A stretch of DNA of 64,000 bases from Deltaproteobacteria bacterium RIFCSPHIGHO2_02_FULL_44_16 (GCA_001798185.1 MGRM01000005.1:19925-83924), one strand, 5' to 3'; positions 1 to 47,452 are shown, numbered from the stretch's first letter. Program-made: numbers and translations. Notes: generated by a model not told the origin, from the letters alone.

Positions 1-948
1 CAAGCTGCTTATCAAAAGAGAAATCTTGCGGCGTCATCCCTGCGAAAGCAGGGATCTCATGCTGATCATGAGATTCCCGCTTTCGCGGGAATGACTTTAC
101 AATACGATATGCTGCGCAAACTGGAACTCTCGTTGAAAAACTTCCAAACGTTGAAAAAATATTGTGATAAAAAGAAGATCACGTTTTTAGTCACACCTTT
201 TGATGAACTTTCGGCAGATCAGTTAGATCCTCTGGTTGAGCAATTTAAAATTTCTTCTGGTGATTGTACGAATATCCCTTTGCTCAAACATATTGCGAGC
301 AAACGGAAGCCCATTATTCTCTCCACAGGCATGACAACACTTGAAGAGGTAAGAAGAGCGGTTGATATCTTTTCAAAAAAACAATTTACGCTTTTGCATT
401 GCACGACCAACTATCCATGCCCGTTTCCAGAAGTGAATCTGGGTGCAATGAAAACACTCCGAGATGAGTTTCAGTGTCCCGTTGGACTTTCGGATCATAC
501 CGAGGGGATCGAAGTGGCAATAGCAGCTGCAGCCCTTGGTGCATCGGTGATCGAAAAACATTTTACGCTTGATCGAACACTTCCAGGTCCTGACCACAAA
601 GCGTCTCTGGAACCAAATGAGTTAATATCCATGGTGCGAGCGATTCGCAACATTGAACAGGCGCTCGGAGATGGAGTGAAAAAGCCGCAAATTTCGGAAG
701 TGGAGACAGCAAAAGTCGCCAGGCGCAGTCTTGTCTTTTCAAAAAATCTTCCGAAAGGGACCGTGCTTCATGAGACTCACTTTCTGGCAAAGCGTCCAGG
801 AACAGGTCTCTCTCCAGAAAAAATTGAACAGATTGTGGGTCGAACATTAAAAAAAGCTGTTGTGAAAGATGAACTTGTCAGTTTTGAATCGCTAGAAACC
901 AATTTTTTGGATATTGAGAACGCTCACCCTGAGCTTGTCGAAGGGTGA
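1..948 (+). CDS. neuB: N-acylneuraminate / nonulosonic acid synthase (NeuB/PseI/LegI family). It is 5'-partial: the frame is open to the window start, and the repeat element at 33-96 lies inside the open frame.
   Basis: Motifs ILSTGM, LLHCTTNYP, LSDHTEGI and a C-terminal SAF (antifreeze-like) domain are present. The ORF aligns from about residue 85 of NeuB-type enzymes. Frame 1 has no stop between positions 1 and 90. The ATG at 91 is supplied by the repeat element. Confidence 0.75.
   Translation, partial: QAAYQKRNLAASSLRKQGSHADHEIPAFAGMTLQYDMLRKLELSLKNFQTLKKYCDKKKITFLVTPFDELSADQLDPLVEQFKISSGDCTNIPLLKHIASKRKPIILSTGMTTLEEVRRAVDIFSKKQFTLLHCTTNYPCPFPEVNLGAMKTLRDEFQCPVGLSDHTEGIEVAIAAAALGASVIEKHFTLDRTLPGPDHKASLEPNELISMVRAIRNIEQALGDGVKKPQISEVETAKVARRSLVFSKNLPKGTVLHETHFLAKRPGTGLSPEKIEQIVGRTLKKAVVKDELVSFESLETNFLDIENAHPELVEG
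33..96. repeat. Double-hairpin palindromic repeat element, family 1, full copy.
   Basis: The sequence is gtcatccctgc-gaaa-gcagggat...gagattcccgc-tttc-gcgggaatgac. It is highly similar to 26765-26823, and 47426-47452 is a half-copy. Confidence 0.7.
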
Positions 949-1937: not shown

Positions 1938-2644
1938 ACATTCTAGTGACGATTGCTGCGCGCGGTGGTTCCAAAGGAGTGCCTGGAAAAAACATTCGTC
2001 CTCTTTGCGGGAAACCTTTGATAGCTCACACCATTGAACAAGCAAAAAGATGGGGAAGAGCTTCGCACAGTGTGGTGAGCACAGATTCTGACAAGATTGC
2101 TTCTGTTGCCCGTGATTACGGTGCGCTTGTTCCCTTTATGCGTCCCGCAGAGATGGCAACCGATACTGCGGATAAGTTTTCGGTTCTTCGCCATGCCACA
2201 AAAACTTCCGAAGAAATTTTTCAAACGACGTACGATATTATCGTGGATCTTGATGTAACATCTCCTTTTCGAACGGTGCAAGATTTGGAAAATTGTTTAG
2301 ATATCTTTACCCAGAAAAGGCCGCAGGCCCTTTTTAGTGTGGTCAGGGCGCATAAGAGCCCGTACTTCAATATGGTGGAAGTGGATGAGAGGGGATTTGC
2401 TTCTCTTTCGAAACGACTTGCCACGAATATTCATCGTCGTCAGGACGCGCCGGTGGTGTATGCGATGAATGCTTCGATTTATTTTTATGATCGAGATTTT
2501 TTAATTGATCCCCAAAGCATGTCTCCCATTTCAGATCGCTCAGTGATTTATGAAATGGAAGAAATCTCGAGTTTCGATATCGATCGCGAAATCGATTTTC
2601 ACTACGCAGAATTTCTTGTCACGGGAGGATATTTTTCATTATGA
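1934..2644 (+). CDS. neuA: Acylneuraminate cytidylyltransferase (CMP-nonulosonic acid synthetase).
   Basis: The protein carries the ARGGSKGVPGKN motif characteristic of CMP-NeuAc/CMP-Pse/CMP-Leg synthetases. It overlaps the upstream gene in an ATGA junction. Confidence 0.8.
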   Translation: MNILVTIAARGGSKGVPGKNIRPLCGKPLIAHTIEQAKRWGRASHSVVSTDSDKIASVARDYGALVPFMRPAEMATDTADKFSVLRHATKTSEEIFQTTYDIIVDLDVTSPFRTVQDLENCLDIFTQKRPQALFSVVRAHKSPYFNMVEVDERGFASLSKRLATNIHRRQDAPVVYAMNASIYFYDRDFLIDPQSMSPISDRSVIYEMEEISSFDIDREIDFHYAEFLVTGGYFSL

Positions 2645-3420
2645 AAAATCTTTTCGATCTTACAGATCGTGTGGTAGTCGTTACGGGAGGAGCAGGGACG
2701 CTTGGGAGAAGTTTTGTTTCGGCATTTCTTCAAGCCGGGGCAAACGTTGTCATTGCTGAAAAGGATGTTGAATGCGCAAATGATTTTGTTTCTCAATTAC
2801 AGTATAAAGATCGTGTACAGTCTGTAGCTCTCGATATCTCATCTGAATCTTCTCTTCTCTCTTGTATGACCGACATCGTAAAGCGCCAGGGACGTATCGA
2901 TGTCTGGATCAACAACGCTTATCCACGCACGAGCGATTGGCATCTTCCCTTCGATAAAATTCCTTTTGCGTCATGGCAGAAAAATATCAATGATCATTTG
3001 AATGGCTATTGCTGGTGTGCCCGCGAGGTGGCCGAAGAAATGAAAAGCCACGGCAGTGGCTCGATCATTAATATTGCCTCTATTTATGGAATTGTTGGCC
3101 CCGATTTTTCGATTTACGAAGGAACACAGATGACGATGCCAGCAGCCTATGCAGCGATCAAAGGAGGCATTGTTCAGTTCACGCGCTATTTAGCCTCTTG
3201 GTACGGTTCTTCTGGAGTACGGGTGAATACGATCTCTCCTGGTGGTATTGAAGCGGATCAACCGAAAAGTTTTAAAGAAAAATATATCGCGCGAACACCG
3301 CTCCGCCGCATGGGGACGCCTGAAGATATTTCAGGTGCAGCCCTTTTTCTCGCTTCCGACGCTTCATCTTATATGACCGGCCACAATCTCGTGATTGATG
3401 GCGGTTGGAGTATTATATGA
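2641..3420 (+). CDS. SDR family oxidoreductase.
   Basis: It has the TGGAGTLG Rossmann motif and SDR length (259 aa). It overlaps the upstream gene in an ATGA junction. Confidence 0.75.
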   Translation: MKNLFDLTDRVVVVTGGAGTLGRSFVSAFLQAGANVVIAEKDVECANDFVSQLQYKDRVQSVALDISSESSLLSCMTDIVKRQGRIDVWINNAYPRTSDWHLPFDKIPFASWQKNINDHLNGYCWCAREVAEEMKSHGSGSIINIASIYGIVGPDFSIYEGTQMTMPAAYAAIKGGIVQFTRYLASWYGSSGVRVNTISPGGIEADQPKSFKEKYIARTPLRRMGTPEDISGAALFLASDASSYMTGHNLVIDGGWSII

Positions 3421-5579
3421 AAATTTTAAGTACCCTTGGTCCCGCCTCGTTGAAAAAAGAGATCATTCAAAAGTTAGATGTGCTTGGTGTTGACATTTTT
3501 CGTATTAATCTTTCCCATGTGGGTCTCGATGTTCTCGAGCAGATCATTTGCACCATCAAAGAAGCGACTTCAAAACAGATTTGTATTGATACGGAAGGGG
3601 CGCAAATCCGCAATCGATACATGGAAAAGAATGTGCAGGTGAAAGAAAATGCGCTCATTGAACTGACCTCTCAAGAAGTGCTTGGCAATGAACGTCTGCT
3701 TTCACTTTCACCGACCTTTGCGGTCGATCTCATTGAAGAGGGGAGTTTTGTCAGTATCGATTTTGATTCTGTCTTTTTACACGTGATTGAAAAAAAACCG
3801 GGGAAACTCATTGCCAAAGTTCTTTCGGGCGGCACGATCGGAAGTAATAAGGCTGTGACGGTCGATCATCCGGTAGCTCTCCCGGTGCTTTCAGAAAAAG
3901 ATGAAAAAGCCATCGAGCTTGCAAAAAAATATGGCATTGATTGTTACGCACTTTCATTTGCTTCAAGCGCCAAAGCGGTGAAGTATGTTCGCGAACGTAT
4001 AGGATCATCGGCATTTTTAATCTCAAAAATTGAAAGTCGGCAGGGTGTTCGCAATGTGGACGAAATTCTTGAGGTCACTGATGCAATTCTGATTGATCGC
4101 GGCGATCTTTCGCGTGAAGTGGCCATTGAAAAAATTCCCTTTCTTCAAAAACTTCTGATTCAAAAAGCGAATGAGAAAAAAGTGCCAGTGTTCGTTGCAA
4201 CAAATCTTCTCGAATCAATGACTGATCGTCGGAAACCGACACGCGCTGAAATGAATGATGTCATGAATACACTTCTTGATGGAGCCGATGGCCTTGTTTT
4301 AGCGGCTGAGACTGCAGTGGGAAAACATCCGCGCGATTGTGTGGCTCTTGTCTCCTCGTGTATTCAGCACTTTCAGGAATGCACCAAGATAAAATCTTGT
4401 GATGATCTTCTGGCAGATCATTCCTTTTTTCTCACAGCACCACACGGTGGGACATTAGTAGAAGCGTTGTCGGAAAAGAGAGATCGAGAGGAACTTTCTG
4501 CTTTTCCAACTCTTTTTGTGGATGAAACCACCTTGATGGATGCAGAGCAGATTGCCATTGGAACCTTTTCTCCGCTTCGTGGATTTATGACGCGTGAAGA
4601 GGTGCAGCATGTTCTTTCTGACTATGCTTTGCCAACAGGAACACCTTGGCCTCTTCCTATTCTCTTTCAAGTATCACAGGAACAAGCTGCACGTTGTCGT
4701 GAAAACAAATGTGTTGCTCTTGCGTCGTCGCAAACAAAACAAGTTCATGCGCTTCTTCAGGTAACCGATGTTTATCCTTATGATCTTAAAAAGCTCGCTC
4801 GTGAGATGTATGGAGTTGACACTGAAGAGCATGCTGGAGTGAAGCGTCTTCTGAAAAATGAGGGATGGTTTGTGGGCGGAGAAATAACGCTCGTGAGCAG
4901 ATTGCCGCGTCCTCTGAAACGTTATGAACTCACGCCTCGTCAGACGCGCATTATTTTTGAACATCAGGGATGGAGTCGTATCGTCGGTTTTCATACACGC
5001 AATGTGATTCATCGCGCGCATGAAGCGCTTCAACTCACGGCGCTCGAAAAATATGGATGCGATGCGCTTTTTGTGCATCCGGTGGTGGGCCCAAAAAAGA
5101 AGGATGACTATACATCTGAAGTGATTCTCAAAAGTTATGAACATATGGTGGAACATCATTATCCTTCGCAGGTGCTCTTAGCAGCCTTCTCTACGTTTTC
5201 GCGATATGCAGGTCCACGCGAAGCGGTCTTTACAGCGCTTTGCCGGAAAAATTTCGGATGCAGTCATTTCATTATGGGACGCGACCACACAGGTGTCGGA
5301 GAGTTTTATGCAGCCGATGCGTCCCAGAAGCTTTTTTCCGAAATGGGAGATTTAGGAATTCAACCTGTTTTCTTTGATCGTGTTTCCTATTGCGATAAAT
5401 GTGGTCGTCATGTGGAAACATGCGAGCATGGAGAAGCAGCGCATCTTTTTATCAGTGGAACCAAAGCGCGAGAGATGTTGATGGCAGGAGAACGACCCCC
5501 GGAATGGTTTATGCGTTCGGATATCTCAGATCTTTTAATGAAAGCGATGAAGGAAGGAAAAGAAGTCTTTGTCTCCTAA
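3417..5579 (+). CDS. sat: Fusion protein: an N-terminal pyruvate-kinase-like barrel domain joined to a complete ATP sulfurylase (sulfate adenylyltransferase) with its PUA-like and catalytic domains.
   Basis: The first ~330 aa align with pyruvate kinase (LGPAS, IDTEGAQIRN, RGDLSREV, MTDRRKPTRAEMNDVMNTLLDGADGLVLAAETAVGK). The C-terminal ~390 aa carry ATP sulfurylase motifs (GTFSPLRGFM, FHTRNVIHRAHE, GRDHTGVG). Confidence 0.8.
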   Translation: MKILSTLGPASLKKEIIQKLDVLGVDIFRINLSHVGLDVLEQIICTIKEATSKQICIDTEGAQIRNRYMEKNVQVKENALIELTSQEVLGNERLLSLSPTFAVDLIEEGSFVSIDFDSVFLHVIEKKPGKLIAKVLSGGTIGSNKAVTVDHPVALPVLSEKDEKAIELAKKYGIDCYALSFASSAKAVKYVRERIGSSAFLISKIESRQGVRNVDEILEVTDAILIDRGDLSREVAIEKIPFLQKLLIQKANEKKVPVFVATNLLESMTDRRKPTRAEMNDVMNTLLDGADGLVLAAETAVGKHPRDCVALVSSCIQHFQECTKIKSCDDLLADHSFFLTAPHGGTLVEALSEKRDREELSAFPTLFVDETTLMDAEQIAIGTFSPLRGFMTREEVQHVLSDYALPTGTPWPLPILFQVSQEQAARCRENKCVALASSQTKQVHALLQVTDVYPYDLKKLAREMYGVDTEEHAGVKRLLKNEGWFVGGEITLVSRLPRPLKRYELTPRQTRIIFEHQGWSRIVGFHTRNVIHRAHEALQLTALEKYGCDALFVHPVVGPKKKDDYTSEVILKSYEHMVEHHYPSQVLLAAFSTFSRYAGPREAVFTALCRKNFGCSHFIMGRDHTGVGEFYAADASQKLFSEMGDLGIQPVFFDRVSYCDKCGRHVETCEHGEAAHLFISGTKAREMLMAGERPPEWFMRSDISDLLMKAMKEGKEVFVS

Positions 5580-6105
5580 ACAAGCTCCTATTTTTTGGAT
5601 GACCGGTTTGTCTGGCGCTGGCAAAACGACCCTCGTCAATGCGGCGATCCGTGAACTTTCAGCTGAAGGATATCGTATCAAAGTGCTCGATGGCGATGTG
5701 GTGCGACTGGAAGTCAATCCCCATTTAGGTTTTACGCCAGAGGATATCCGAGAGAATAATCGTATTATTGCAACCCTCTGTCTTGAGCATCGTCCTCATC
5801 ACGATCTTCTTTTTGTTCCGGTGATTACCCCCTTTGAAGATATACGAAACGAAATTCGAAAACGAATTGGGGAAGGATTTTTTCTCATTTATCTCAAGAC
5901 ATCGTTACAGACGGTGATGCAACGAGATGTCAAAGGGCTCTATCAAAAGGCTTTAAAAAAAGAGATTGATCATGTGATCGGTTTTGATGAGCGCGTTCCG
6001 TTTCAGGAACCAACGCATCCAGATCTTGTGATTCATACAGAGAAAGAAATGTTAACTGAATCGACGGATTGCTTTTTGACGTTTATTCGAAAGGTTTTAG
6101 ATTAA
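5569..6105 (+). CDS. cysC: Adenylylsulfate (APS) kinase.
   Basis: The P-loop WMTGLSGAGKTT is present with APS kinase length and context. The ORF track places a TTG start at 5569. Confidence 0.85.
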   Translation: MSPKQAPIFWMTGLSGAGKTTLVNAAIRELSAEGYRIKVLDGDVVRLEVNPHLGFTPEDIRENNRIIATLCLEHRPHHDLLFVPVITPFEDIRNEIRKRIGEGFFLIYLKTSLQTVMQRDVKGLYQKALKKEIDHVIGFDERVPFQEPTHPDLVIHTEKEMLTESTDCFLTFIRKVLD

Positions 6106-6108
6106 GCG

Positions 6109-7725
6109 ATGGGTGAGCAGATATATACGGTGATTGGTTCAGGTCCGAGTGCGGTGCATGCGGCCCTCACGTTATTAGAGCGAGGAAAACGTGTTCGCCT
6201 TCTCGATGTGGGAGAAGAAGAAAAACCGATTCCATATCCTGAAGTCAATTTTTTGGAATTGAAATCAAAACTTTCTGATCCTTTTCGTTTTTTCCTCGGA
6301 GAACATGCAGAAGGGGTTCTTTCTCCAAATAGAGAAGAAATTTTTTCCTATCCTCCTGTACGAAATTTTCATGTTTCCTCTCACAATCCTTATTTTCGTG
6401 TTGAGGGAAAAGAATTTGTTCCGATTGTTTCGCACAATCGTGGCGGTCTCGGAGTAGCGTGGGGTGCGAACTGTCTGCCATACGATGCTGACGACATGAG
6501 AGATTTTCCGGTCTCTTCCCAGGAGTTTGCGAGTGCCTATGAGCGCGTGGGAAAACGCATTGCGATTTGCGGTGAACGTCAGGAGGAGGGGGGATCTTTT
6601 TTACCTCTTAATCGACATGATGCGCAGGTATGGAAAAAATATCTTGAGCACCAACATCTTCTGCAGAAAAAATTTCGCATCGTGATGGAACGCGCGCGAA
6701 TGGCGGTGGATACAGATCCACATTCGCCAACCCGTTGTATTTCGTGCAATCGTTGTTTGTGGGGATGTGGAGTGGGAGCGATTTATAATCCGACAGCCAC
6801 CCTTGAACTCTGTCGACGGTATGAACAATTTGAATATCGCTCCGGCATCTACGTTACCTCGTTTGGGATTGAACACGGAAAAGTGACGAAGATTCATTTT
6901 TTCGATATCCCTCGACAGCAATTCGATACTCTCTCAGCTGAAACTGTTTTGCTCGGTGCTGGTGCTCTCAGTAGTGCTGGCATCTTCTTACGAACGCTCA
7001 AAAATGACCCACAGTTCGCTCCTCAATGGAAAGAGCGTCAGCTCCGAACGCGGTCGGTGATGGATACGCAGGTCATCAAGCTCCCCTATCTTTTATGGCG
7101 TGCGCTTGGGAGTCAGGTTGATCCTCATGATTTTCAATTTAACAAGCTTATTCTCGGATATATGAATGAAACCTGTTCGCACTACCCTCGTTATGTTCAT
7201 GCAGAAGTGCTTTCGCTTTCGAGTTTGCTCTATCATCCTCTCATCGAATCGCTCCCGTTTGGAAGTCGCGATTCAGCTCGAATCTTCGCACAGATTCGAT
7301 CAGCGCTGGGTGTGGCGACTTATTTTCTTCCGGATCGACCGTATGGAGAGAATGGTATTTCCTTGGAACCTGATGGGGGAACCATTACCGGCGATCGTTT
7401 AAAAATTACGTATCAAACAGATCCTCAAAAAATGGCATTGGCTGAAGAAGCGTGTCAATATACCCGACGCGTTTTTCGTCGCCTTGGATGTTGGATGCCA
7501 AAAAAGAAGATGCTTCAGCCAAAACCGGGAAGCGGGATTCATTATGCCGGAACGATTCCGATGTCGAAAGAACGTGATATCCTCTGTATCGATTCGAAAG
7601 GTGCAAGTTTTGCCTATCCGAATTTGTATGTCATCGATGGTTCTGGCTTTCCAACGCTTCCTTCAAAAAGCATTACCTTTTCATTGATGGCAAATGCGAC
7701 ACGCATTGCGGAACATGTTTCCTGA
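6109..7725 (+). CDS. GMC family FAD-dependent oxidoreductase.
   Basis: The N-terminal FAD dinucleotide fold is VIGSGPSAVHAA and the C-terminal GMC-type motif is GSGFPTLPSKSITFSLMA. Confidence 0.65.
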   Translation: MGEQIYTVIGSGPSAVHAALTLLERGKRVRLLDVGEEEKPIPYPEVNFLELKSKLSDPFRFFLGEHAEGVLSPNREEIFSYPPVRNFHVSSHNPYFRVEGKEFVPIVSHNRGGLGVAWGANCLPYDADDMRDFPVSSQEFASAYERVGKRIAICGERQEEGGSFLPLNRHDAQVWKKYLEHQHLLQKKFRIVMERARMAVDTDPHSPTRCISCNRCLWGCGVGAIYNPTATLELCRRYEQFEYRSGIYVTSFGIEHGKVTKIHFFDIPRQQFDTLSAETVLLGAGALSSAGIFLRTLKNDPQFAPQWKERQLRTRSVMDTQVIKLPYLLWRALGSQVDPHDFQFNKLILGYMNETCSHYPRYVHAEVLSLSSLLYHPLIESLPFGSRDSARIFAQIRSALGVATYFLPDRPYGENGISLEPDGGTITGDRLKITYQTDPQKMALAEEACQYTRRVFRRLGCWMPKKKMLQPKPGSGIHYAGTIPMSKERDILCIDSKGASFAYPNLYVIDGSGFPTLPSKSITFSLMANATRIAEHVS

Positions 7726-8647
7726 TGAAAATAAAAAAGATGTTTTTGTGACTGGTGCTCACCGATCTGGCTCGAGTTGGATTGGAAAGATGTTGGCTCT
7801 TGGAGAAAATATTTGTCTTCGAGATGAAGAAATTTTTCATCGTTATTGGGAGTTGGCAAAAGCTCCTTTTGAAAAAATGCATGCGTATATTTGTCAGGAG
7901 AATGAACATCACTATCTCCCTTATGTGAATCGTATGGTGAACAATCGTTTCCATTTAGCACGAGCGATGGCGCATATTCGTTCAGCGCGAGATGTAGGTC
8001 GTGTTGTGAAGCGTCAGGGAGTTTTTTGGAGGCGACAACTTCAATCAGCAGAACGCACGATTTACATTGAACCGATCGGACTGTTTTCTGCTGAATGGTT
8101 TTCTCAGAAATTTCATACCGATATGCTTCTCGTGATCAGGCATCCAGCTTCTTTTGTGAGTAGTTTGAAAAGTTTGAATTGGGGTTATAACTTCAATGAT
8201 CTTCTTGAACAACCTCTTTTAATGGACCGCTATTTATCGCGATTTCGCCATGACATGGAGAGAGCTCCTCGTAAACCGGATGTGGTTGGTATCGGCATTC
8301 TTCTCTGGAAAATTTTGTATTCTGTAGTTCATCAGTATCAACAACAGCATCCTGACTGGATTTTTATTCGACATGAAGATTATGCGCAACATCCAGAAAA
8401 AAAGTTTCAAGAACTCTATCAGCGTTTACACTTTCCGTTTACAACAACAGTAGAGCAGACTATTTCCGATTATACTTCTCCCTCTAATCCAACGGAATTT
8501 TCTGGAAAAAGAGATGACTCTCGTCGCAATAGCCGTGAAACAATTCATATTTGGAAAACTCGTTTAACAGAAGAAGAGGTGAAGCGCATTCGTGATGGTG
8601 TGGAAGAAGTCTCTTCGTTTTTCTATGATGGAGCGAGTTGGGAATGA
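7715..8647 (+). CDS. PAPS-dependent sulfotransferase.
   Basis: A 5'-PSB-like loop (TGAHRSGSSW) and a 3'-PB-like motif (RHPASFVSS) are present. The gene lies immediately downstream of the sat-cysC PAPS module. Confidence 0.7.
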   Translation: MFPDENKKDVFVTGAHRSGSSWIGKMLALGENICLRDEEIFHRYWELAKAPFEKMHAYICQENEHHYLPYVNRMVNNRFHLARAMAHIRSARDVGRVVKRQGVFWRRQLQSAERTIYIEPIGLFSAEWFSQKFHTDMLLVIRHPASFVSSLKSLNWGYNFNDLLEQPLLMDRYLSRFRHDMERAPRKPDVVGIGILLWKILYSVVHQYQQQHPDWIFIRHEDYAQHPEKKFQELYQRLHFPFTTTVEQTISDYTSPSNPTEFSGKRDDSRRNSRETIHIWKTRLTEEEVKRIRDGVEEVSSFFYDGASWE

Positions 8648-9084
8648 AACAGGAACTGACGCGGATAGTTCACTATCTTTTTGGTATGTCTGCCGGGAAT
8701 GCTGCTTTTTCTTCCCTGTATGAAGAGAACGTGCATCGCATTTGTGCCGGTTCAAATCCAAGTCCTTTTTCGCATCTGGTATCGAAGGTTGCACTCAAAC
8801 ACCGATTTTTTTTAATGTTGCTCGATCCATGGACTCGTCTTTTTGATCCTAAAAGTCTTCTTCGATGTAAGCTTAATTTTGTAGTGGCATTAGCAGAATG
8901 TGATCCTCTCTTATGCTTGAAACTTCAAAGAAAAACACAAGGAGATATGATTTCTGTGATGATCATCGGTCTCTGGCTCGTCATTCGATGGGCAATGTTT
9001 CTGCTGGTGGGAACTCTTTTGGTAGCATTTTTAAAATGTATTTCGGTGGTGAAACGAAATGAAGCATTCCTTTTTTCACGATAA
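8638..9084 (+). CDS. Hypothetical small membrane protein.
   Basis: This 148-aa ORF fills an otherwise empty 400-bp gap and has a C-terminal hydrophobic helix. No family was recognised. Confidence 0.3.
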   Translation: MGMKQELTRIVHYLFGMSAGNAAFSSLYEENVHRICAGSNPSPFSHLVSKVALKHRFFLMLLDPWTRLFDPKSLLRCKLNFVVALAECDPLLCLKLQRKTQGDMISVMIIGLWLVIRWAMFLLVGTLLVAFLKCISVVKRNEAFLFSR

Positions 9085-9814
9085 AAATATCCTTATCACG
9101 GGAGCGAGTCGCGGGCTTGGGCGTGAACTGGCGCTTCACTGTGCTTCGCAAGGTGCACGCGTGTTTGCCATTGCACGTGACGAAGAAAAACTTCGTCTCT
9201 TAGCGGCAACGTCATCGCATATTCATCCCTATGTTGCCGACATTACGCAAGCAGCATGGTCAGACCAACTTCGTCGCATTCTTCACGAATATCCCATCGA
9301 CATTGCGATTCTGAATGCTGGCATCAAAGAACGATCAGAGCATCTCTTTTCACTTCCATCGGTAGAACGAACATTTGCCGTGAATGTTTTTGGTGCTTGT
9401 CGAACGGTTGAGGTTTTGCTTCCGCAGATGAGAGAGCAACAACATGGTCATCTTGTTTTTATTTCGAGTATGGGGGCTCATCACGGCATGGTTCAAGCTT
9501 CTGGATATAATGCTTCGAAGGCAGCGCTCCTGAACTTAGCCACCTCTTTACGTATGGATCTTGTTCGAGAAAAAATTCCGATCACCGTTACCGTGGTAGA
9601 GCCTGGATTATTTCGCACATCTATGATTTCATCCAAGGGACTCATGAATTGGTTGGCCATGGATGTGAGCGCTGTCTCCAAAAGAATTATAAAAGGGATT
9701 GTTCGTGGTGAAGAAAAAATTGTATGTCCAAAGTGGATGAGCTTTATGACCCAAGTGATTGCCCATGTTCCAGGACGATGGCAGAGAATGCTGCTGACGA
9801 GAGTGAAATCATGA
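9059..9814 (+). CDS. SDR family oxidoreductase.
   Basis: It has the ITGASRGLG motif, an SDR catalytic region (NASKAA) and a length of 251 aa. Confidence 0.75.
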   Translation: MKHSFFHDKNILITGASRGLGRELALHCASQGARVFAIARDEEKLRLLAATSSHIHPYVADITQAAWSDQLRRILHEYPIDIAILNAGIKERSEHLFSLPSVERTFAVNVFGACRTVEVLLPQMREQQHGHLVFISSMGAHHGMVQASGYNASKAALLNLATSLRMDLVREKIPITVTVVEPGLFRTSMISSKGLMNWLAMDVSAVSKRIIKGIVRGEEKIVCPKWMSFMTQVIAHVPGRWQRMLLTRVKS

Positions 9815-10575
9815 CTCATCTTTCCGTAATTATTCCGGTCTACAATGCTGAAGCGTTCGTGAAACAGAATGTCCAGAAGGTATTGGCGGAACTTGCAACA
9901 CAATCTTTTGCTTGGGAAGTGATCGCTGTCGATGATGGCAGTCGTGATCGATCTCTTCTCTTTCTGCAAGAGCTCGCCAAAGAAAATCCAGAGCTTCGAG
10001 TCGTTGAAAGCAAGTGTAATCGAGGAAAGGGACACGCCGTTCGATTGGGGATCGAACATGCGCAAGGACATTATGTGGTCTTTAATGATGTCGATTTAGC
10101 CTATCCCGTCAGTGAAATCTTTCGGCTCTTAGCGGTGCTTGAAAAAGGGACCGATATTGCTATTGCTTGTCGGGTGTTACCTGAATCTCGCTATGAAATC
10201 AGCCCTGCCTTTTTTCGTTATCTGTATACGCGCCATGTGATGGGACGTTTTTTTAATCTCCTTGTTCGCAAGCTCTTGCTTCCTGGCCTTTTGGATACAC
10301 AGGCAGGGCTTAAAGGTTTTCGGGCAGAAGTGGCGAAAACCGTTTTTGCGCGCCAAACTCTTTTTCGTTTTAGTTTTGATGTCGAAATTCTCTATATTGC
10401 GCAAAAATTCGGTTTCAAGATTGAACAGGTGCCAATTTTCTTTCGTTATTTCTTTGAGGAAACAACCGTCCGTTTTTTTGAGGATACGGTGAAGATGGTA
10501 AGTGATTTGTGTCGAATTAAATTGAATGATTGGAGAGGGCGATACAGTGCGACAACTCCTTGTAAATGCCGATGA
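9811..10575 (+). CDS. GT2 polyprenyl-phosphate glycosyltransferase (GtrB/ArnC/DPM1-like).
   Basis: LSVIIPVYNAE...VIAVDDGSRD is a GT-A DxD-type signature. The start at 9811 makes an ATGA overlap with the upstream SDR. Confidence 0.8.
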   Translation: MTHLSVIIPVYNAEAFVKQNVQKVLAELATQSFAWEVIAVDDGSRDRSLLFLQELAKENPELRVVESKCNRGKGHAVRLGIEHAQGHYVVFNDVDLAYPVSEIFRLLAVLEKGTDIAIACRVLPESRYEISPAFFRYLYTRHVMGRFFNLLVRKLLLPGLLDTQAGLKGFRAEVAKTVFARQTLFRFSFDVEILYIAQKFGFKIEQVPIFFRYFFEETTVRFFEDTVKMVSDLCRIKLNDWRGRYSATTPCKCR

Positions 10576-20844: not shown

Positions 20845-22202
20845 TGAATAAATCTCTCAGCATTTTTAATCGAGAAATTGTGTTTACCTTTCTCCGGCTC
20901 GGTACCGGAGCCATCGTGGCACGAAAACTTGGCCCGACCGGCATGGGTATTTGGGCAGCGCTTGATTTGATTGTGAATTATTCTCGTGTTTTTGGAGCTC
21001 CTCGTCTCGAAATCGCGACGGTCTATTTTTGGAGCCAAAAACAATGGAACCGAGGAGAAATTCTTTTTACGGTCAATGTCGTCGGTTTTACGATGGGACT
21101 TTTACTCTGCTTTCTTCTTTCCTTTCAGCATGATTTGTTACGAACTTTTTTTGTAAAAACAAATATTGAACCTTTGCTCATGATCCTTGTTTTTGCGCAT
21201 TTGCCTCTGCGTTTTGTAAAAAGGAATTATCATTACTTTCTTTTGGCCCAAGAGGATACGCAATCTTACAATCGTGTTTTGGTGATTGATGATGTCCTGA
21301 AAGCCATGATCACTATAACGCTTTTACTCTTTTTTGATCTCGGTCTTTGGTCCCTTGCGATTGCGATTCATATTTCAAGCGCATGCGCCTTTGTCTATGC
21401 TGCTGTAAAAGTCCGACGAACTCAGCGTATGGTCGTGCACCATAACGTGAAACTTTTTTTTACGATGCTCCGCTTTAGTATGAAAGTGTATGTCTCGGAA
21501 GCGAGCGGTTTTTTAACCATCTATATCTCCAATTTAATTACCGCTCTTTTCCTTGGTCCTGCTCAGCTTGCTTTTTTTTCCATGGGAAAGGGAAAGGCTG
21601 AATGGTTGAATCGTATCACCAATGCGATTGCGACAGTGCTCTATCCGAGAGTTTCACACCTGCAAGGGAGTGGACAGGATGCCTCGATAACCACAACCGA
21701 TGCTTCACGCATCTCCCTTCTCATCTTATCCGTTGCTGCTTTTTTCTTATCCCTTTTCATTTATCCCGCCACGCTTCTTCTCTATGGTCGGGAATTTAGT
21801 CCTTTGGTGATTGTTTTCTTTCTTATTCTACCGGGTTTTATTTTTCATTCGGTCACGAGTCTGCAGCGACAGTATTTTCTTGGAATTGGAAGAGCTGATA
21901 TTCCGATGAAAATCAATATGATACCTCTCATCTTGCAAGCAACACTTTGCTATCTTTTTATTCCCAAAATGGGATTTATGGGGGGAGCCATTGCTGTATC
22001 GCTGACTCATCTGATGATGTCTGCGATCACGGTTATCGTGTATCGTCGCATGACCGGAATTACCTTTTCACAGCTTTTACTCCCTACGCGAAGGGATAGA
22101 GATTATTTGGTCCAGCTCGTGATGACCAAGCTTCAGATTTTCTTCGACATGCTTCGACGAATGTTTGGAAGAGTTCTTCAGAGTCTTTATGAAAAAGTTT
22201 AA
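20835..22202 (+). CDS. wzx: Wzx-type oligosaccharide flippase (MOP superfamily polysaccharide biosynthesis protein).
   Basis: The 455-aa protein has about 12 predicted transmembrane helices and an N-terminus typical of polysaccharide_synt/Wzx proteins. Confidence 0.65.
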   Translation: MSLVNKSLSIFNREIVFTFLRLGTGAIVARKLGPTGMGIWAALDLIVNYSRVFGAPRLEIATVYFWSQKQWNRGEILFTVNVVGFTMGLLLCFLLSFQHDLLRTFFVKTNIEPLLMILVFAHLPLRFVKRNYHYFLLAQEDTQSYNRVLVIDDVLKAMITITLLLFFDLGLWSLAIAIHISSACAFVYAAVKVRRTQRMVVHHNVKLFFTMLRFSMKVYVSEASGFLTIYISNLITALFLGPAQLAFFSMGKGKAEWLNRITNAIATVLYPRVSHLQGSGQDASITTTDASRISLLILSVAAFFLSLFIYPATLLLYGREFSPLVIVFFLILPGFIFHSVTSLQRQYFLGIGRADIPMKINMIPLILQATLCYLFIPKMGFMGGAIAVSLTHLMMSAITVIVYRRMTGITFSQLLLPTRRDRDYLVQLVMTKLQIFFDMLRRMFGRVLQSLYEKV

Positions 22203-24030
22203 AAAAATACTTCGTTCTCTCAAACGTTCTTTTGTGACGGTCTCACGATTTCTCCGATTTGGAGATAGTCATAAGGTTGTTTTTTTTGAAACGCTCTCTT
22301 CCGAAAATAAAACGTTGCCTTCACGAAGAGATGTTCTGCGCTGGATTTCTCCCATTCTCAAAGAGATGGGGAGAACATTTGTGCGAGCTTACCGAGTTGG
22401 ACTTGGAGAAGCGCATACGCTTCATCCCGATCCGCTTTCCACAGCAGGAGGGGAGAGTTATGGAAAATGTCGAATCGGTTTTACGTACAAAAACGCCTTT
22501 TCGCTTTCCCATGCTCCTCAAGGAAGTGTGTCGCTGAATCTTTCAGATGAGGCTGCCGAAGGAATATACTTTTGGGTCGGGAAAAAATTTATTGAAACCG
22601 GTGATGGACTTTTGGATCTTTTTCTTGAAGGAAAAGATTCCACAAAAATTTTTTCAAAAAAATTAAATGCGCTTCATCACGCATGGGATCTTTTTTATTT
22701 TCCTTTAGCCCAAAAGAGCGGCGAATATAAATTCACGTGGAGTACACAAGGGGAGAAGAAGGATCTTTTACTGACTCCCCCTCTGATCAAACGAAAACAG
22801 GAACGAACTGTTCTTCTTCTCATCGCTGATGCTGTGCGACCTCAAGACATCGGGCTTTATTCAGGAGCTGTTCATACACCGATGCTCGATGCCTATTTTT
22901 CATCAGGAGTTCTTTTTCAAAATAGTTTTGCTCAAAGTAATTGGACGCTTCCGGCCTTTGCTTCGATTGCCACTTCTCACTATGCATCAGAACATGGCGT
23001 GGTCGATCCTGATCGCTATTCGCGTCCCATGGATCGACACGTTCCAACCTTAGGGGAAGTGATGCGCGCTCACGGATTTTATACCTATGGCTCTGTATCT
23101 CATTTTCGCAGTAACCAAGCTTATGGGCATCATCGTGGTTTTGAACACTTTGACTATGCAAGTACGATGCAAGAAAAACCGGGAACCACAGGAGTGGCAG
23201 GACAGAATAATATGCATCGTCAACTTCGGGAACTTTGTGCGTATGTTGACAATCTTCGCGGAGTGAATTTTTTTGGAATGATCCACTTTTTTGATACGCA
23301 TTTCCCCTATTTTTATAATCCCTATCAGCTCAACCAGCATGATCTTCTTTTTCAAAATTCTCTGGAATACTCTGTGCGAAAACCATTCACTCAGCAATTT
23401 ACGGAGGAAGAGTATCGGTATATGCTTCATCAGTATTATACGCGTCTTGCAGAGTTGGATGCTGCACTCGCGCAGCTCTTTTATGTTCTTCGAAACAGAG
23501 AGAACGTCACCGTTCTTTTTATGTCCGATCATGGATATTGTTTTGAGAAATCCCTTGGGCATGATTTGTCCTCTGATGAGATTGCAACTCCTCTTTTCAT
23601 AAGCTCCACTGAATTCAAGCTCGAAGGGGGGAAACATCAGCGCGTGACGCAGTCTTCGGTGGATATCCTGCCGACATTGACAACCCTTTTTGGGATTCAT
23701 GATGTAACTGCGCGCGCGGGAACCTCTCTGTTTGATCGCTCAGGAAAAGTTCTCCAGAAAGAAGTGGCAGTGTCAGAGTTGATCTATCATGAACTCTATC
23801 AAGTACGTCTTATTGGAAAAAAAGGAGCAACACTTTTGTTTGAAACCAAACGTTCTCGTAAGAGTGGAACGATTGAAGTTGACCAACTTTTTATCAAGGA
23901 CAATCGTTTTGACTCCCCCTCAGAAACATCTCTTGAAATGTTCCTTGCCTCTGTAGAAAGTTCAAAACTTTTTCCTTCACTCAAAAAGAAAATGTGTGAA
24001 CTGATTCGTTCTGGAGAGAACTTGCAATGA
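22189..24030 (+). CDS. Sulfatase-like (alkaline-phosphatase-superfamily) protein, paralog 1.
   Basis: LLLIADAVRPQDIGLYSG is the sulfatase N-terminal metal-site motif. At the CxPxR position the protein has TLPAF, that is Thr in place of Cys and no Arg. No transmembrane segment is predicted. Confidence 0.65.
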   Translation: MKKFKKILRSLKRSFVTVSRFLRFGDSHKVVFFETLSSENKTLPSRRDVLRWISPILKEMGRTFVRAYRVGLGEAHTLHPDPLSTAGGESYGKCRIGFTYKNAFSLSHAPQGSVSLNLSDEAAEGIYFWVGKKFIETGDGLLDLFLEGKDSTKIFSKKLNALHHAWDLFYFPLAQKSGEYKFTWSTQGEKKDLLLTPPLIKRKQERTVLLLIADAVRPQDIGLYSGAVHTPMLDAYFSSGVLFQNSFAQSNWTLPAFASIATSHYASEHGVVDPDRYSRPMDRHVPTLGEVMRAHGFYTYGSVSHFRSNQAYGHHRGFEHFDYASTMQEKPGTTGVAGQNNMHRQLRELCAYVDNLRGVNFFGMIHFFDTHFPYFYNPYQLNQHDLLFQNSLEYSVRKPFTQQFTEEEYRYMLHQYYTRLAELDAALAQLFYVLRNRENVTVLFMSDHGYCFEKSLGHDLSSDEIATPLFISSTEFKLEGGKHQRVTQSSVDILPTLTTLFGIHDVTARAGTSLFDRSGKVLQKEVAVSELIYHELYQVRLIGKKGATLLFETKRSRKSGTIEVDQLFIKDNRFDSPSETSLEMFLASVESSKLFPSLKKKMCELIRSGENLQ

Positions 24031-25442
24031 CCGATATTCCCCTGTGTGTCGATCTCGATGGGACACTTTTAAAGACTGATACCTTGGTCGAAGGTTTTCT
24101 TGCTTGTCTCAAAAAGAAACCGTTATCGTTGGTGCAAGCTCCATTTTGGTTGTTTAAAGGCAAAGCTGTCCTGAAACGAAAAATCTTTGAAACGATTGAG
24201 CTCAACCCCCATGTGCTTCCTTACCATCTCGATTTTTTAGACTATCTTCACGGAGAATATGAAAAGGGAAGGAAGCTCATTTTAGCAACTGCTGCGCATG
24301 AACGTATTGCAACTTCTATTGCGCAGCATCTCAATATTTTTTCCGAAGTATTTTCGACGAATCACACAAACTTAAAAGGTTCTTCTAAATGTGAAATATT
24401 GGAAAAAAGGTTTGGAAAGAAAAAGTTTGGATATGCAGGAAATGCTCACATTGATCTTTTGGTTTGGAAAGAAGCTGGAGAGGGTATTGTCGTCAACGCA
24501 TCACCTCGGTTATTACAAAAGGCGGAAAAAATGACCTCTGTGGTTAAATTTTTTCCTCAAAAAAGAGGAACTTTTTTGAAAATCTTGAAGGCCATGCGTC
24601 TTTATCAATGGGTGAAAAACTTGCTTGTTTTCATTCCATTGATCTTGGCTCATCGCGTTACAGAGATTTCACTTTTTCAAGATGCTGTGGTTGCATTTTT
24701 TTCTTTTGGACTATGTGCCTCGAGTGTTTATCTTTTAAATGATTTGCTCGATTTGGAAGCAGACCGTCTTCATCCCCGAAAACGGCTTCGTCCTTTTGCT
24801 TCCGGAGAACTGAGCCCTTGGATCGGTATTTTCTTCATTCCGCTTCTTTTGATAACGAGTTTTCTCACTGCGCTCACACTTTCGATCTGGTTTGTCGTTA
24901 CGCTTGGGATTTATTATGTGCTGACACTTTCTTATTCTCTCTATTTGAAACGCATTCCTCTGATCGATGTCGTGTTACTGGCGATGCTTTATACGCTTCG
25001 TTTGATTGCGGGGATTGCGTCAGTGCATGTTCCCATTTCGCCGTGGCTTTTTGCCTTTGCGCTCTTTTTCTTTTTAAGTTTAGCGCTTGTAAAACGATCT
25101 TCGGAATTAACGATGATGCAAAAAGAAAACCTGGAGAGTTCACTTGGTCGTGGCTATCGACCAGATGATTTAGAACTCCTGACCATGATGGGAATCTCCA
25201 GCGGATTTCTTTCGGTTTTGGTTTTGGCGCTCTACATTCACAGTGAAGATGTTTCAGTTTTATATGCGCAGCCAATGTTTCTCTGGCTTATCTGTCCTTT
25301 CTTCCTTTATTGGATCGGACGTATTTGGTTTTTGACGCGAAGAGGAGGAATTCCTGACGATCCCATTCTTTTCGCGGCGAAAGATAAAATAAGCTATGTG
25401 ATTGGGAGTTTTATCTTTTTTATTCTCTATGTGGCATCATGA
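24027..25442 (+). CDS. Fusion of an HAD-like phosphatase domain with a UbiA-family polyprenyl-phosphate phosphoribosyltransferase (DPPR synthase / Rv3806c-like).
   Basis: The N-terminal CVDLDGTLLK is HAD motif I. The C-terminal YQWVKNLLVF...YLLNDLLDLEADRLHPRKRLRP carries the UbiA NDxxDxxxD motif. Confidence 0.75.
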   Translation: MTDIPLCVDLDGTLLKTDTLVEGFLACLKKKPLSLVQAPFWLFKGKAVLKRKIFETIELNPHVLPYHLDFLDYLHGEYEKGRKLILATAAHERIATSIAQHLNIFSEVFSTNHTNLKGSSKCEILEKRFGKKKFGYAGNAHIDLLVWKEAGEGIVVNASPRLLQKAEKMTSVVKFFPQKRGTFLKILKAMRLYQWVKNLLVFIPLILAHRVTEISLFQDAVVAFFSFGLCASSVYLLNDLLDLEADRLHPRKRLRPFASGELSPWIGIFFIPLLLITSFLTALTLSIWFVVTLGIYYVLTLSYSLYLKRIPLIDVVLLAMLYTLRLIAGIASVHVPISPWLFAFALFFFLSLALVKRSSELTMMQKENLESSLGRGYRPDDLELLTMMGISSGFLSVLVLALYIHSEDVSVLYAQPMFLWLICPFFLYWIGRIWFLTRRGGIPDDPILFAAKDKISYVIGSFIFFILYVAS

Positions 25443-26758
25443 AAAATGATTCTGAAGTTCTTGAATCCTGGGGACGCAACCCACAGATTCAGCAATCATC
25501 GACTTCTCTTCATTGGAGAAGTGATATTCACTTTTCTTCAGAGAAGAAGATGTTGCCTTACGGAATGGGGCGAAGTTACGGTGATGTCTGTCTCCATGAA
25601 GGAGGACTTCTTCTGAAGACGAGAGGACTGAATCGTTTTTTAGAGTTCGATGCAGAAGAGGGGAGATTGATCTGCGAAGCAGGTGTCTCTTTTGAGGAGA
25701 TTCTCGATTTTGCTGTTCCTCGAGGGTGGTTTCTTCCGGTAACTCCGGGAACAAAATATGTGACGGTCGGTGGTGCGATTGCAAATGATGTGCATGGCAA
25801 AAACCATCACCGTGCAGGATCATTTGGTTGTCATGTCGTTCGTTTTGAACTGTTGCGTTCTGATGGAACGCACCTTCTTTGTAGTCAGACTGAAAATACT
25901 GATTGGTTTCGGGCCACGGTGGGAGGTTTAGGTCTTACCGGTGTTATTACCTGGGCTGACATTCGTCTCAAAAAAGTTGTCAGTCCCTTTATTCGTCAAG
26001 AAACGGTTCCATTTCGTTGTGTCGATGATTTTTTTGCACTTTCTGCTTCGAGCAATCGCGATTTTGAATACACCGTCGCCTGGATCGATTGTTTGGCGAA
26101 GGGGAAAAATCTTGGACGAGGTATTTTTATTCGTGGAAATCATGCAGAAATGAACTCAACAAAAAAGAATCCAAAGAGAAAAAAACCGACATGGAGTATT
26201 CCATGTCAGATGCCTTCTTTTCTTTTGAATCCATTGACGATCAAAGTTTTCAATGGAATGTATTATTTTTCTCAATGCTGGCGAAAAGATTCAAGGCTTG
26301 TTCACTTTGATCCTTTCTTTTATCCGCTCGATGCCGTGAAATGTTGGAATCGTCTGTACGGCCATCGCGGCTTTTTTCAATACCAGTGTGTTGTCCCTCC
26401 GCAGACAGCGCCAGAAAATATACGGCGTCTTCTCGACAAAGTTTCTCATTCAAAGCAAGCATCCTTCCTTTCCGTGTTGAAACAATTCGGTTCGCTTCCT
26501 TCTCCGGGAATGATGTCCTTTCCCCGAAAAGGAGTGACTCTTGCTATGGATTTTCCCAATCGTGGTATCAAAACTTCTCAACTTCTTCATCAACTGGATG
26601 ATATTGTGCAGAAAGTGGGAGGAGCTGTCTATCCGGCGAAAGATGCCTGTATGTCGCGTACCTCCTTTGCTGCTTATTATCCACGATGGAAAGAGTTTGC
26701 ATCGTATATTGATCCCCAGTTCTCATCCAGTTTCTGGAAAAGAGTGAAAGGTGAATAA
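25439..26758 (+). CDS. dprE1: Decaprenylphosphoryl-beta-D-ribose 2'-oxidase-like FAD oxidoreductase (DprE1 homolog).
   Basis: Conserved blocks GRSYGD, GTKYVTVGGAIANDVHGKNHHRAGSFG, ATVGGLGLTG, FYPLD, WNRLYGHRGFFQYQCVVP and GGAVYPAKD match DprE1 closely. Confidence 0.85.
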   Translation: MKNDSEVLESWGRNPQIQQSSTSLHWRSDIHFSSEKKMLPYGMGRSYGDVCLHEGGLLLKTRGLNRFLEFDAEEGRLICEAGVSFEEILDFAVPRGWFLPVTPGTKYVTVGGAIANDVHGKNHHRAGSFGCHVVRFELLRSDGTHLLCSQTENTDWFRATVGGLGLTGVITWADIRLKKVVSPFIRQETVPFRCVDDFFALSASSNRDFEYTVAWIDCLAKGKNLGRGIFIRGNHAEMNSTKKNPKRKKPTWSIPCQMPSFLLNPLTIKVFNGMYYFSQCWRKDSRLVHFDPFFYPLDAVKCWNRLYGHRGFFQYQCVVPPQTAPENIRRLLDKVSHSKQASFLSVLKQFGSLPSPGMMSFPRKGVTLAMDFPNRGIKTSQLLHQLDDIVQKVGGAVYPAKDACMSRTSFAAYYPRWKEFASYIDPQFSSSFWKRVKGE

Positions 26759-26764
26759 ACTTTC

Positions 26765-26823
26765 GTCATCCCCGCTTACGCGGGGATCTCATGAGATTCC
26801 CGCTTCCTGCATGCGGGAATGAC
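26765..26823. repeat. Double-hairpin palindromic repeat element, family 1, full copy.
   Basis: The sequence is gtcatccccgc-ttac-gcggggat ctcatg agattcccgc-ttcctgcat-gcgggaatgac. It lies intergenic between the dprE1-like and dprE2-like genes. Its ATG (26791) creates a spurious upstream ORF start. Confidence 0.7.
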
Positions 26824-26841
26824 AACCATGCGAGTGCACAT

Positions 26842-34500: not shown

Positions 34501-34510
34501 AATAAACAAA

Positions 34511-47425: not shown

Positions 47426-47452
47426 TCGTCATTCCCGCGCAGGCGGGAACAG
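47426..47452. repeat. Half-copy of the family 1 palindromic repeat.
   Basis: gtcattcccgc-gcag-gcgggaa matches the right-arm hairpin of family 1. It lies in the 38-bp gap between convergent genes. Confidence 0.5.

Follow-up and report, generated by a model that had tools for sequence, protein, structure and literature searches.

A pyruvate kinase core fused to ATP sulfurylase in bacterial glycan loci: a candidate module for dedicated sulfate activation

Sulfated polysaccharides and glycolipids of bacteria are turning up in many environments, and how bulk sulfation is paid for in the costly donor PAPS (3'-phosphoadenosine 5'-phosphosulfate) has been little studied. This question is raised by four collinear + strand genes at positions 3417-8647 of a 64-kb stretch of DNA (the window, to which our view of the genome is limited) from the Rifle-aquifer groundwater "Deltaproteobacteria" metagenome-assembled genome (MAG) RIFCSPHIGHO2_02_FULL_44_16. 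They encode an ATP sulfurylase (Sat) fusion protein, the adenosine 5'-phosphosulfate (APS) kinase CysC, a GMC-like flavoprotein and a sulfotransferase. Their surroundings form a glycan locus with genes for NeuB, a CMP-sugar synthetase, GT2 and GT4 glycosyltransferases, flippases, Wzz, Wzi, and PglF-like and DegT proteins. The original prediction, made from the DNA alone, described a self-contained module for PAPS synthesis and sulfate transfer, and the coordinates, gene order and motifs given there are all correct. Negative statements on window genes cover the open reading frames (ORFs) scanned with Pfam. The genes and domains of the module are as follows:

3417-5579, + strand: fusion of pyruvate kinase (PK) and Sat (PK-Sat), 720 aa from ATG, or 724 aa from a TTG at 3405
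3420-4343, + strand: PK barrel and lid (A and B domains) of PK-Sat (Pfam)
4437-4898, + strand: PUA_2 domain of PK-Sat (Pfam)
4920-5543, + strand: ATP-sulfurylase catalytic domain of PK-Sat (Pfam)
5569-6105, + strand: APS kinase CysC, 178 aa (Pfam, NCBIfam)
6109-7725, + strand: GMC-like FAD oxidoreductase, 538 aa (Pfam, C-terminal GMC domain)
7694-8647, + strand: PAPS-type sulfotransferase, 317 aa (Pfam, motifs, AlphaFold2 model)

What is the sulfurylase fused to? That it is part of a fusion had been recognized from the DNA; the partner had been left unnamed. Pfam matches on the 724-aa ORF comprise a PK barrel (PF00224, amino acids 6-313, 1.5e-69), PUA_2 (345-498, 3.8e-39) and ATP-sulfurylase (506-713, 2.5e-77), a layout of N-terminal PK A+B core, variable linker, PUA-like domain and Sat catalytic domain. 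The PK half aligns end to end with Geobacillus PK (2e28) and Escherichia coli PykF over the A and B domains (E ~1e-52 to 1e-54), with R29, N31, S33, D58, T59, K204, E206, D230 and T262 opposite PykF R32, N34, S36, D66, T67, K220, E222, D246 and T278. In PK these residues bind phosphoenolpyruvate (PEP) and phosphate (Arg), coordinate K+ and Mg2+, and supply the catalytic Lys and the Thr that donates the proton. Eight of the nine are invariant across 30 family members; the exception is T59, at which position the members read DTEG (27), DSEG (2) or DLEG (1). With its A and B domains and all catalytic and metal ligands in place, the PK half resembles PykF and Geobacillus PK, but it differs from them in having no effector domain (the fusion protein gives no Pfam match to the C-terminal PK_C, PF02887), in a sub-cutoff score against the PK model TIGR01064 (269.9 bits vs a cutoff of 306.4, the match spanning positions 4-343 of 476) and in reading DTEGAQIR for DTKGPEIR. 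By its sequence, the fusion partner is the catalytic core of a pyruvate kinase, not a canonical PK. Mean pairwise identity among the 30 members is 54% in the PK part, 27% in the linker, 48% in the PUA domain and 61% in the Sat catalytic domain; the PK part is thus on par with the Sat half, which argues for the same constraint on it as on the sulfurylase. The full-length fusion gives a confident AlphaFold2 model (pLDDT 89.8, pTM 0.77) that is softer in the linker (320-355).

The Sat half has both domains of the homo-oligomeric Sat type (PF01747 and PF14306) and scores above the cutoffs of the sulfate adenylyltransferase models NF003166 (407.8 bits vs 387) and TIGR00339 (323.2 vs 322.95). Its nearest PDB entries are 8a8d from Methanothermococcus thermolithotrophicus (E 2.6e-94) and 1v47 from Thermus thermophilus (9.7e-76). 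Both enzymes are homodimeric and have a Zn-binding domain (PMC10322725), so that the initial description of the window Sat as monomeric runs counter to its nearest solved relatives. In common with these enzymes, the window Sat half has HRAHE, the GRDH loop and the domain III Cys/His cluster, the last being an invariant Zn-site-like Cys3His set (C659/C662/C669/H671) in the C-terminal region that matches their Zn domain. Whereas they are stand-alone proteins with a canonical FQTRN, the window clade has FHTRN, GRDHTG and the N-terminal PK core. The motifs in the window protein are FHTRNVIHRAHE (Q to H relative to canonical QTRN) and GRDHTGVG, and H526 (window 4992-4994) is invariant in 30 sequences, with FHTRN in place of FQTRN and GRDHTG in place of GRDHAG. 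We rejected the Q-to-H change as a fusion-specific trait, as the stand-alone Sats P0346 and P0353 of the same subclade carry the identical change together with the Ala-to-Thr change in GRDHAG.

CysC matches APS_kinase (PF01583) over its full length (7.3e-38), exceeds the equivalog cutoff of TIGR00455 (148.9 bits vs 138.7) and contains the P-loop already quoted for it, WMTGLSGAGKTT (GLSGAGKTT; tested pattern GxxGxGK(S/T)T). The TTG start of cysC overlaps the PK-Sat stop by 11 nt, and this overlap suggests that the two genes may be translationally coupled. The product of the following gene had been called a GMC oxidoreductase; with the C-terminal GMC domain alone matching (GMC_oxred_C, 6.4e-12), we regard it as GMC-like and not as a clean family member. 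There is no match to GMC_oxred_N (PF00732) in the 6109-7725 protein, which has an N-terminal GSGPSA dinucleotide-binding motif. Its best PDB match is pyranose oxidase (1.4e-6, the C-terminal 107 residues only), and the gene has no counterpart in the 80 other PK-Sat loci (81 compared). The same protein has an internal C-x2-C-x2-C-x3-C stretch (CISCNRCLWGC) with weak matches to 4Fe-4S ferredoxins (E ~0.008).

The sulfotransferase matches Sulfotransfer_1 (1.3e-9) and Sulfotransfer_3 (7.3e-7) and has both a 5'-phosphosulfate-binding (5'-PSB) loop, TGAHRSGSSW, and a 3'-phosphate-binding (3'-PB) motif, RHPASFVSS. A database search gave 310 homologues of ~307 aa each, and G21, H23, R24, S25, G26 and W29 as well as R149, P151 and S157 are invariant in 32 that were aligned. 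The AlphaFold2 model (pLDDT 89.3, pTM 0.88) has a sulfotransferase fold: all 50 PDB matches listed by Foldseek are PAPS sulfotransferases (probability 1.00, TM ~0.5 for the best), including TPST1/2, the sulfotransferase domains of CurM and olefin synthase, cytosolic SULTs, Stf1 and 3-OST-1. The assignment in the original prediction thus stands, and the protein is not a generic P-loop protein without 3'-PB residues. Its identity to solved enzymes is 11-15%.

How might these proteins work together? The domains and motifs for making PAPS (Sat and CysC) and for transferring sulfate are present as predicted. The Sat half would convert ATP and sulfate into APS, CysC would convert APS and ATP into PAPS and ADP, and the sulfotransferase would pass sulfate from PAPS to a sugar or lipid-linked sugar acceptor. 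An active PK core would turn PEP and ADP into pyruvate and ATP beside the Sat and CysC reactions. ATP and sulfate are strongly favored at the sulfurylase equilibrium, which is pulled by removal of pyrophosphate (PPi) and APS or, in CysDN, by GTP hydrolysis. By recycling the ADP of CysC with PEP, the PK core would let PEP pay for the second step and keep APS low, so that the free energy of PEP would pull the very unfavorable sulfurylase equilibrium; energy coupling would then have a third solution, alongside the CysN GTPase and pyrophosphatase/APS-kinase fusions. The PK step would also resupply ATP and clear ADP, which otherwise holds APS kinase in a dead-end complex of enzyme, ADP and APS. Formation of this complex is the reason why PAPS synthesis in vitro practically fails without ATP regeneration by PK and PEP (PMC9885120). 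We infer the PK activity, the hand-over of ADP and ATP, PAPS as the product and a sulfated glycan from domain identities, intact catalytic residues, gene order, the family-wide linkage to cysC and sulfotransferase genes, and recurrent fusion. To the combined statement, a dedicated PAPS supply for glycan sulfation with a PK core that uses PEP to recycle the ADP of CysC, we give a probability of roughly 60%. A dedicated PAPS supply for glycan sulfation is, taken alone, quite probable; PEP-driven ADP recycling by the fused PK core is a prediction in which we place somewhat better than even confidence. It is the simplest reading of the intact PK site, the coupling to cysC, the existence of triple fusions and the fact that fusion recurred independently.

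How widespread is the architecture? A word-indexed search gave 2801 matches, and our statements on architecture concern the best 120, all of which are 711-756 aa long, contain PK, PUA_2 and ATP-sulfurylase, and are 48-59% identical to the query. More than 513 relatives were found in a genome scan with one genome per species; the best 80 loci, on which the locus analysis was done, align over essentially the full query length with 44-58% identity. These loci come from Omnitrophota, 'Deltaproteobacteria', Nitrospinota, Planctomycetota, Chloroflexota, Elusimicrobia, Acidobacteria, Actinomycetota, Bdellovibrionales, Verrucomicrobia, several lineages of the Candidate Phyla Radiation (CPR), and Alpha- and Betaproteobacteria, more than 12 phyla overall. 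Sinorhizobium saheli, S. chiapasense, Mesorhizobium album and Methyloversatilis are cultured carriers, and the gene of Ensifer adhaerens lies on a 2.8-Mb plasmid; in Sinorhizobium and Ensifer, PK-Sat is on secondary replicons of 2.6-2.8 Mb, adjoining Wzy and cysC genes (the plasmid records of S. chiapasense and E. adhaerens are unannotated at the locus, and the Ensifer locus was annotated anew here). Source records name PK-Sat proteins 'hypothetical protein', 'sulfate adenylyltransferase' or 'pyruvate kinase'. The window protein is identical to OGQ23303.1 and OGQ45957.1, both 'hypothetical protein' (from the Rifle MAGs RIFCSPLOWO2_02_FULL_44_10 and RIFCSPHIGHO2_02_FULL_44_16). A full-text search of open-access papers and bioRxiv gave no description of the PK-Sat architecture.

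Does the family keep the company that a glycan-sulfation role predicts? ORFs were called in the 80 loci and the window and clustered, and cluster representatives were annotated; counts refer to the 79 loci with an intact fusion ORF and derive from our own ORF calls and hidden Markov models (HMMs), with a partial Pfam check. A set of 'sulfotransferases' built by iterative HMM search strayed into TPR proteins and a cluster resembling methyltransferases; we replaced it by a recount that admitted a sulfotransferase only if the 5'-PSB Arg/Lys and the 3'-PB Arg were kept, and Pfam supports 51 of the 73 candidates. A cysC gene lies within 1 kb of the fusion in 32 of the 79 loci (immediately downstream in 28) and within 10 kb in 35. 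For a sulfotransferase with both PAPS-binding residues, the numbers are 39/79 and 46/79, respectively, and 24 loci have both neighbors. These counts are lower bounds because many loci are short contigs. Together with the position in a glycan operon, this linkage supports the glycan-dedicated role put forward earlier. Other recurrent neighbors are TauE-family anion transporters, GT4 and GT2 glycosyltransferases, Wzx-type flippases, Wzy, DegT, NeuC-like epimerases and NeuB (17 loci). In the closest locus (MAG nzgw173, 58% identity), the order is NeuB, Gfo/Idh/MocA, (TauE), cytidylyltransferase, SDR, PK-Sat, sulfotransferase, GT2, YdjC, methyltransferase and membrane protein. This order is common with the window; cysC and the GMC-like gene are absent. 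In an alphaproteobacterial MAG (L029, 500-20560), eight paralogous genes encoding proteins of 600-785 aa, most of them TPR repeats plus a sulfotransferase domain, surround PK-Sat, which suggests massive multi-site sulfation.

Was the fusion made more than once? When 1.8 billion cluster representatives were searched exhaustively without a profile and the matches annotated with Pfam, these variant architectures emerged:

P0274, P0289 and P0290: PK-PUA-Sat-APS kinase triple fusion, 904-930 aa
P0334: reverse order, PUA-Sat-PK, 725 aa
P0307: complete PK including PK_C, fused to Sat, 859 aa
P0322: Phosphodiest(NPP)-PK-Sat, 1151 aa
P0399: Sat-NPP, 856 aa

In P0334 and P0307, the PK half reads DLPGKKIR and DLPGPKIR, respectively, compared with DTEGAQIR, and the Sat half still has FHTRN and GRDHTG. 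As these PK halves fall in a different PK clade, the joining of PK to this Sat clade happened independently at least three times. The reverse-order fusion (locus L086) lies between a PMT_2 glycosyltransferase and a GT2 gene, with an ABC transporter and CysD/CysN-like genes nearby; given these last genes, it is not the only sulfurylase in that genome. A small Phosphodiest gene (L086, 10241-10966) stands between the CysD-like and CysN-like genes. Phosphodiest denotes the type I phosphodiesterase/nucleotide pyrophosphatase (NPP) domain, which is fused to Sat in P0399 and to PK-Sat in P0322; such domains may be partners of sulfate activation that remove PPi or 3'-phosphoadenosine 5'-phosphate (PAP). 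Stand-alone PK cores of the fusion clade also occur (P0383, P0390 and P0412), one of them ~4 kb from a sulfotransferase gene. We rejected a seemingly split pair in locus L090, a stand-alone PK core and a Sat, as Rosetta-stone evidence, for on translation it is a fused gene with one in-frame TAA. The stop (L090, 6001-8208) directly follows a conserved PHGGELV, on a metagenome contig with an APS-kinase fragment upstream, and the interruption could reflect a pseudogene, an error of sequencing or a true split.

Could the module instead be the organism's general PAPS route for cysteine, which merely lies beside glycan genes? Sat-type enzymes are housekeeping assimilatory sulfurylases in many organisms, so that the earlier argument for a dedicated role, the presence of a Sat in place of CysDN, is invalid. 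Many bacteria and archaea also assimilate sulfate by way of Sat and CysC (PMC10322725), and the reverse-order fusion adjoins an ABC transporter and CysD/CysN-like genes. Yet the window genes lie within one + strand glycan operon with the sulfotransferase after them, and in the set of 79 loci PK-Sat is associated with sulfotransferase and polysaccharide genes. Among the Pfam-annotated neighbors in five loci, the sole PAPS_reduct gene is the CysD-like gene of L086, and no sulfite reductase was found; moreover, L086 has CysDN besides the fusion, which is thus not its only activating enzyme. The position of the Sinorhizobium and Ensifer genes, on secondary replicons beside Wzy and cysC, also speaks against a housekeeping role, which we consider unlikely. 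Equally improbable, in our view, is a PK core that is no kinase and serves as an oligomerization scaffold or as a PEP or energy sensor gating Sat, in lieu of the regulatory domains of other Sat fusions. The PK C domain, part of the tetramer interface and the site of effector binding, is missing, and fungal Sats with a non-catalytic APS-kinase-like regulatory domain are a textbook precedent, with PDB entries 1i2d and 1m8p among the Sat-half matches. Against this, eight of nine mapped catalytic, Mg2+ and K+ ligands are invariant over 30 divergent members, and the lid (B) domain is kept; independent fusions with other PK clades, one of them a complete PK, likewise favor activity over one particular surface. 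Supply of pyruvate for pyruvylation was rejected as a role of the PK core, since by textbook chemistry ketal-pyruvyl transferases use PEP and not pyruvate.

Two further alternatives concern the chemistry of the donor. In loci without cysC, the PK core might take the place of APS kinase, with PEP phosphorylating APS directly, or the sulfotransferases might use APS; 22 of the 46 sulfotransferase loci have no cysC within 10 kb, and the locus most closely related to that of the window is one of them. This is very unlikely: cysC is present in the window and in 34 other loci, where it usually overlaps the fusion gene, the triple fusions include APS kinase, and PK chemistry targets a terminal phosphate and not the ribose 3'-OH (textbook). 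Moreover, the 3'-PB Arg and Ser are kept as often in sulfotransferases of cysC-less loci (35/39 and 32/39) as in the others (32/34 and 27/34); PAPS is therefore probably still the donor in cysC-less loci, judged by these residues, with cysC encoded elsewhere. Still more remote is a donor other than sulfate, for example, a modification of the phosphoramidate type as in Campylobacter. A CysC homologue in a glycan locus need not be an APS kinase, as in the O-methyl phosphoramidate (MeOPN) pathway, where Cj1415 acts on a cytidine nucleotide, and an anion-site residue of the Sat half is altered (Q to H). However, the window CysC exceeds a curated APS kinase equivalog cutoff, the module includes a true Sat domain and a sulfotransferase of the PAPS type, and none of the window ORFs scanned has a glutamine kinase (PEP-utilizing/PPDK-type) or amidase domain. 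A MeOPN-like pathway was accordingly considered and rejected.

Several points weigh against a dedicated PAPS supply with PEP-driven ADP recycling. Bulk cellular PK already keeps ADP low, so a fused copy pays only with channeling or a complex with CysC. In the 22 loci with a sulfotransferase and no cysC within 10 kb, CysC must be encoded elsewhere. The family-specific change of the PK loop from DTKGPEIR to DTEGAQIR may bear on the use of nucleotide or K+. In the Sat half, the sulfate-contacting Gln of canonical QTRN is His, and sulfate specificity is assumed. Finally, neither cysQ nor a sulfate transporter was found among the window ORFs scanned. A broader proposal is more tentative, and we give it slightly less than an even chance: PK-Sat, with CysC separate or fused, would be an unrecognized PEP-driven sulfate-activating machine, a third natural answer to the sulfurylase equilibrium that arose three or more times and was carried with glycan-sulfation loci into more than a dozen bacterial phyla including CPR, and the APS kinase, PK and sulfurylase sites may pass ADP and ATP to one another directly.

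How does the module compare with known systems? Rhizobial NodPQ/NodH is another set of PAPS genes tied to glycan genes. The capsular polysaccharide (CPS) cluster of Cobetia marina combines cysNC, cysD, cysQ, a sulfate permease gene and sulfotransferase genes (PMC11766843). Like these two, the window encodes sulfate activation, APS kinase and sulfotransferase together with glycan genes, as for pathway-specific PAPS; they have the GTPase-coupled CysDN/NodPQ, whereas the window has a Sat of the homo-oligomeric type with a PK core. CysD (PAPS_reduct fold) and CysN (EF-Tu-like GTPase) domains are absent from the four genes and the other window ORFs scanned. Metazoan PAPSS, the Aquifex Sat/APS kinase 2gks and fungal Sats are likewise sulfurylases fused to an enzyme that handles the unfavorable equilibrium, and relatives of the window protein even include PK-Sat-APS kinase triple fusions; in the window, by contrast, the partner is a PK, which would act on ADP and ATP and not on APS or PPi. 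In vitro PAPS cascades also combine sulfurylase, APS kinase and PK, remove ADP and avoid the dead-end complex (PMC9885120), but they use engineered separate enzymes, and here one polypeptide or operon in nature has the same components. A PAPS module within a glycan locus is thus already known, and what is new is a widespread, recurrent and misnamed fusion of a PK core and Sat.

If the proposed mechanism is true, bacteria couple PEP to sulfate activation with the same PK/PEP system that biocatalysis adds by hand, and PK-Sat would be a compact enzyme for PAPS production. The fusion could serve as a genomic marker for glycan-sulfation loci, and metabolic reconstructions could be corrected in which PK-Sat genes in MAGs are taken for glycolytic PK or for sat, whether assimilatory or dissimilatory. 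The cultured carriers Ensifer adhaerens, Sinorhizobium saheli, Mesorhizobium album and Methyloversatilis universalis make PK-Sat directly testable.

What would be sulfated in the window organism? The + strand genes of the first 14 kb (1-14 kb) form an unbroken run with overlapping or abutting ends, in which the following genes flank the module:

91-948, + strand: NeuB-type nonulosonate synthase, upstream operon partner
945-1937, + strand: Gfo/Idh/MocA oxidoreductase, upstream operon partner
1934-2644, + strand: PseF/NeuA-like cytidylyltransferase, upstream operon partner
2641-3420, + strand: PtmA-like SDR, upstream operon partner
9724-10575, + strand: GT2, polyprenyl-phosphate-sugar-synthase-like (matches ArnC, PpgS and dolichyl-phosphate hexose transferase), syntenic with L004
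10526-11404, + strand: YdjC-family deacetylase, syntenic with L004
11376-12050, + strand: SAM methyltransferase, syntenic with L004
12023-13567, + strand: polytopic membrane protein, 514 aa, syntenic with L004

Upstream lies a nonulosonic-acid set (NeuB, Gfo/Idh/MocA, PseF-like cytidylyltransferase and PtmA-like SDR), the order of which is repeated in the closest homologous loci, L002-L004. Downstream, the sulfotransferase is syntenic in the window and L004 with the GT2, YdjC deacetylase, methyltransferase and large polytopic membrane protein genes. The product may be a nonulosonate that carries sulfate, or a lipid-linked amino sugar that is first deacetylated and then N- or O-sulfated. The 514-aa membrane protein has no family match in Pfam or NCBIfam; kinship with the PMT_2 (ArnT-like) protein beside the reverse-order fusion was considered and rejected, there being zero similarity. 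A transferase of the BFO_1060/TIGR04396 type is also encoded downstream of the module. The end of the sulfotransferase gene is overlapped by a 148-aa ORF (8638-9084) with a hydrophobic C-terminal segment, which has no family match and no counterpart in related loci and may not be a real gene.

Directly 5' of the NeuB ORF and in frame with it is a GC-rich palindromic repeat (window 30-95) of two hairpins, CCCTGC-GAAA-GCAGGG and ATTCCCGC-TTTC-GCGGGAAT, followed by GAC. As the NeuB Pfam match begins only at model position 44, this element may interrupt or replace the NeuB N terminus. A diverged second copy of the repeat is intergenic, at 47428-47450 (0 chance matches expected). Elsewhere in the window, at 22165-24030 and 34463-36427, are genes for proteins of 621 and 654 aa with a C-terminal 'Sulfatase' (alkaline-phosphatase superfamily) domain after ~215-240 residues; this layout is that of LtaS/EptA/OpgB-type phospho-substituent transferases and not of true sulfatases. 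At 24027-27576, a UbiA prenyltransferase with a HAD-like N terminus, an FAD_binding_4 oxidase and an SDR are encoded in a row, which resembles the actinobacterial route from decaprenyl-phosphoribose to decaprenyl-phospho-arabinose (DPPR synthase, DprE1 and DprE2) and, by this analogy, hints at a polyprenyl-phosphate pentofuranose donor in the window locus.

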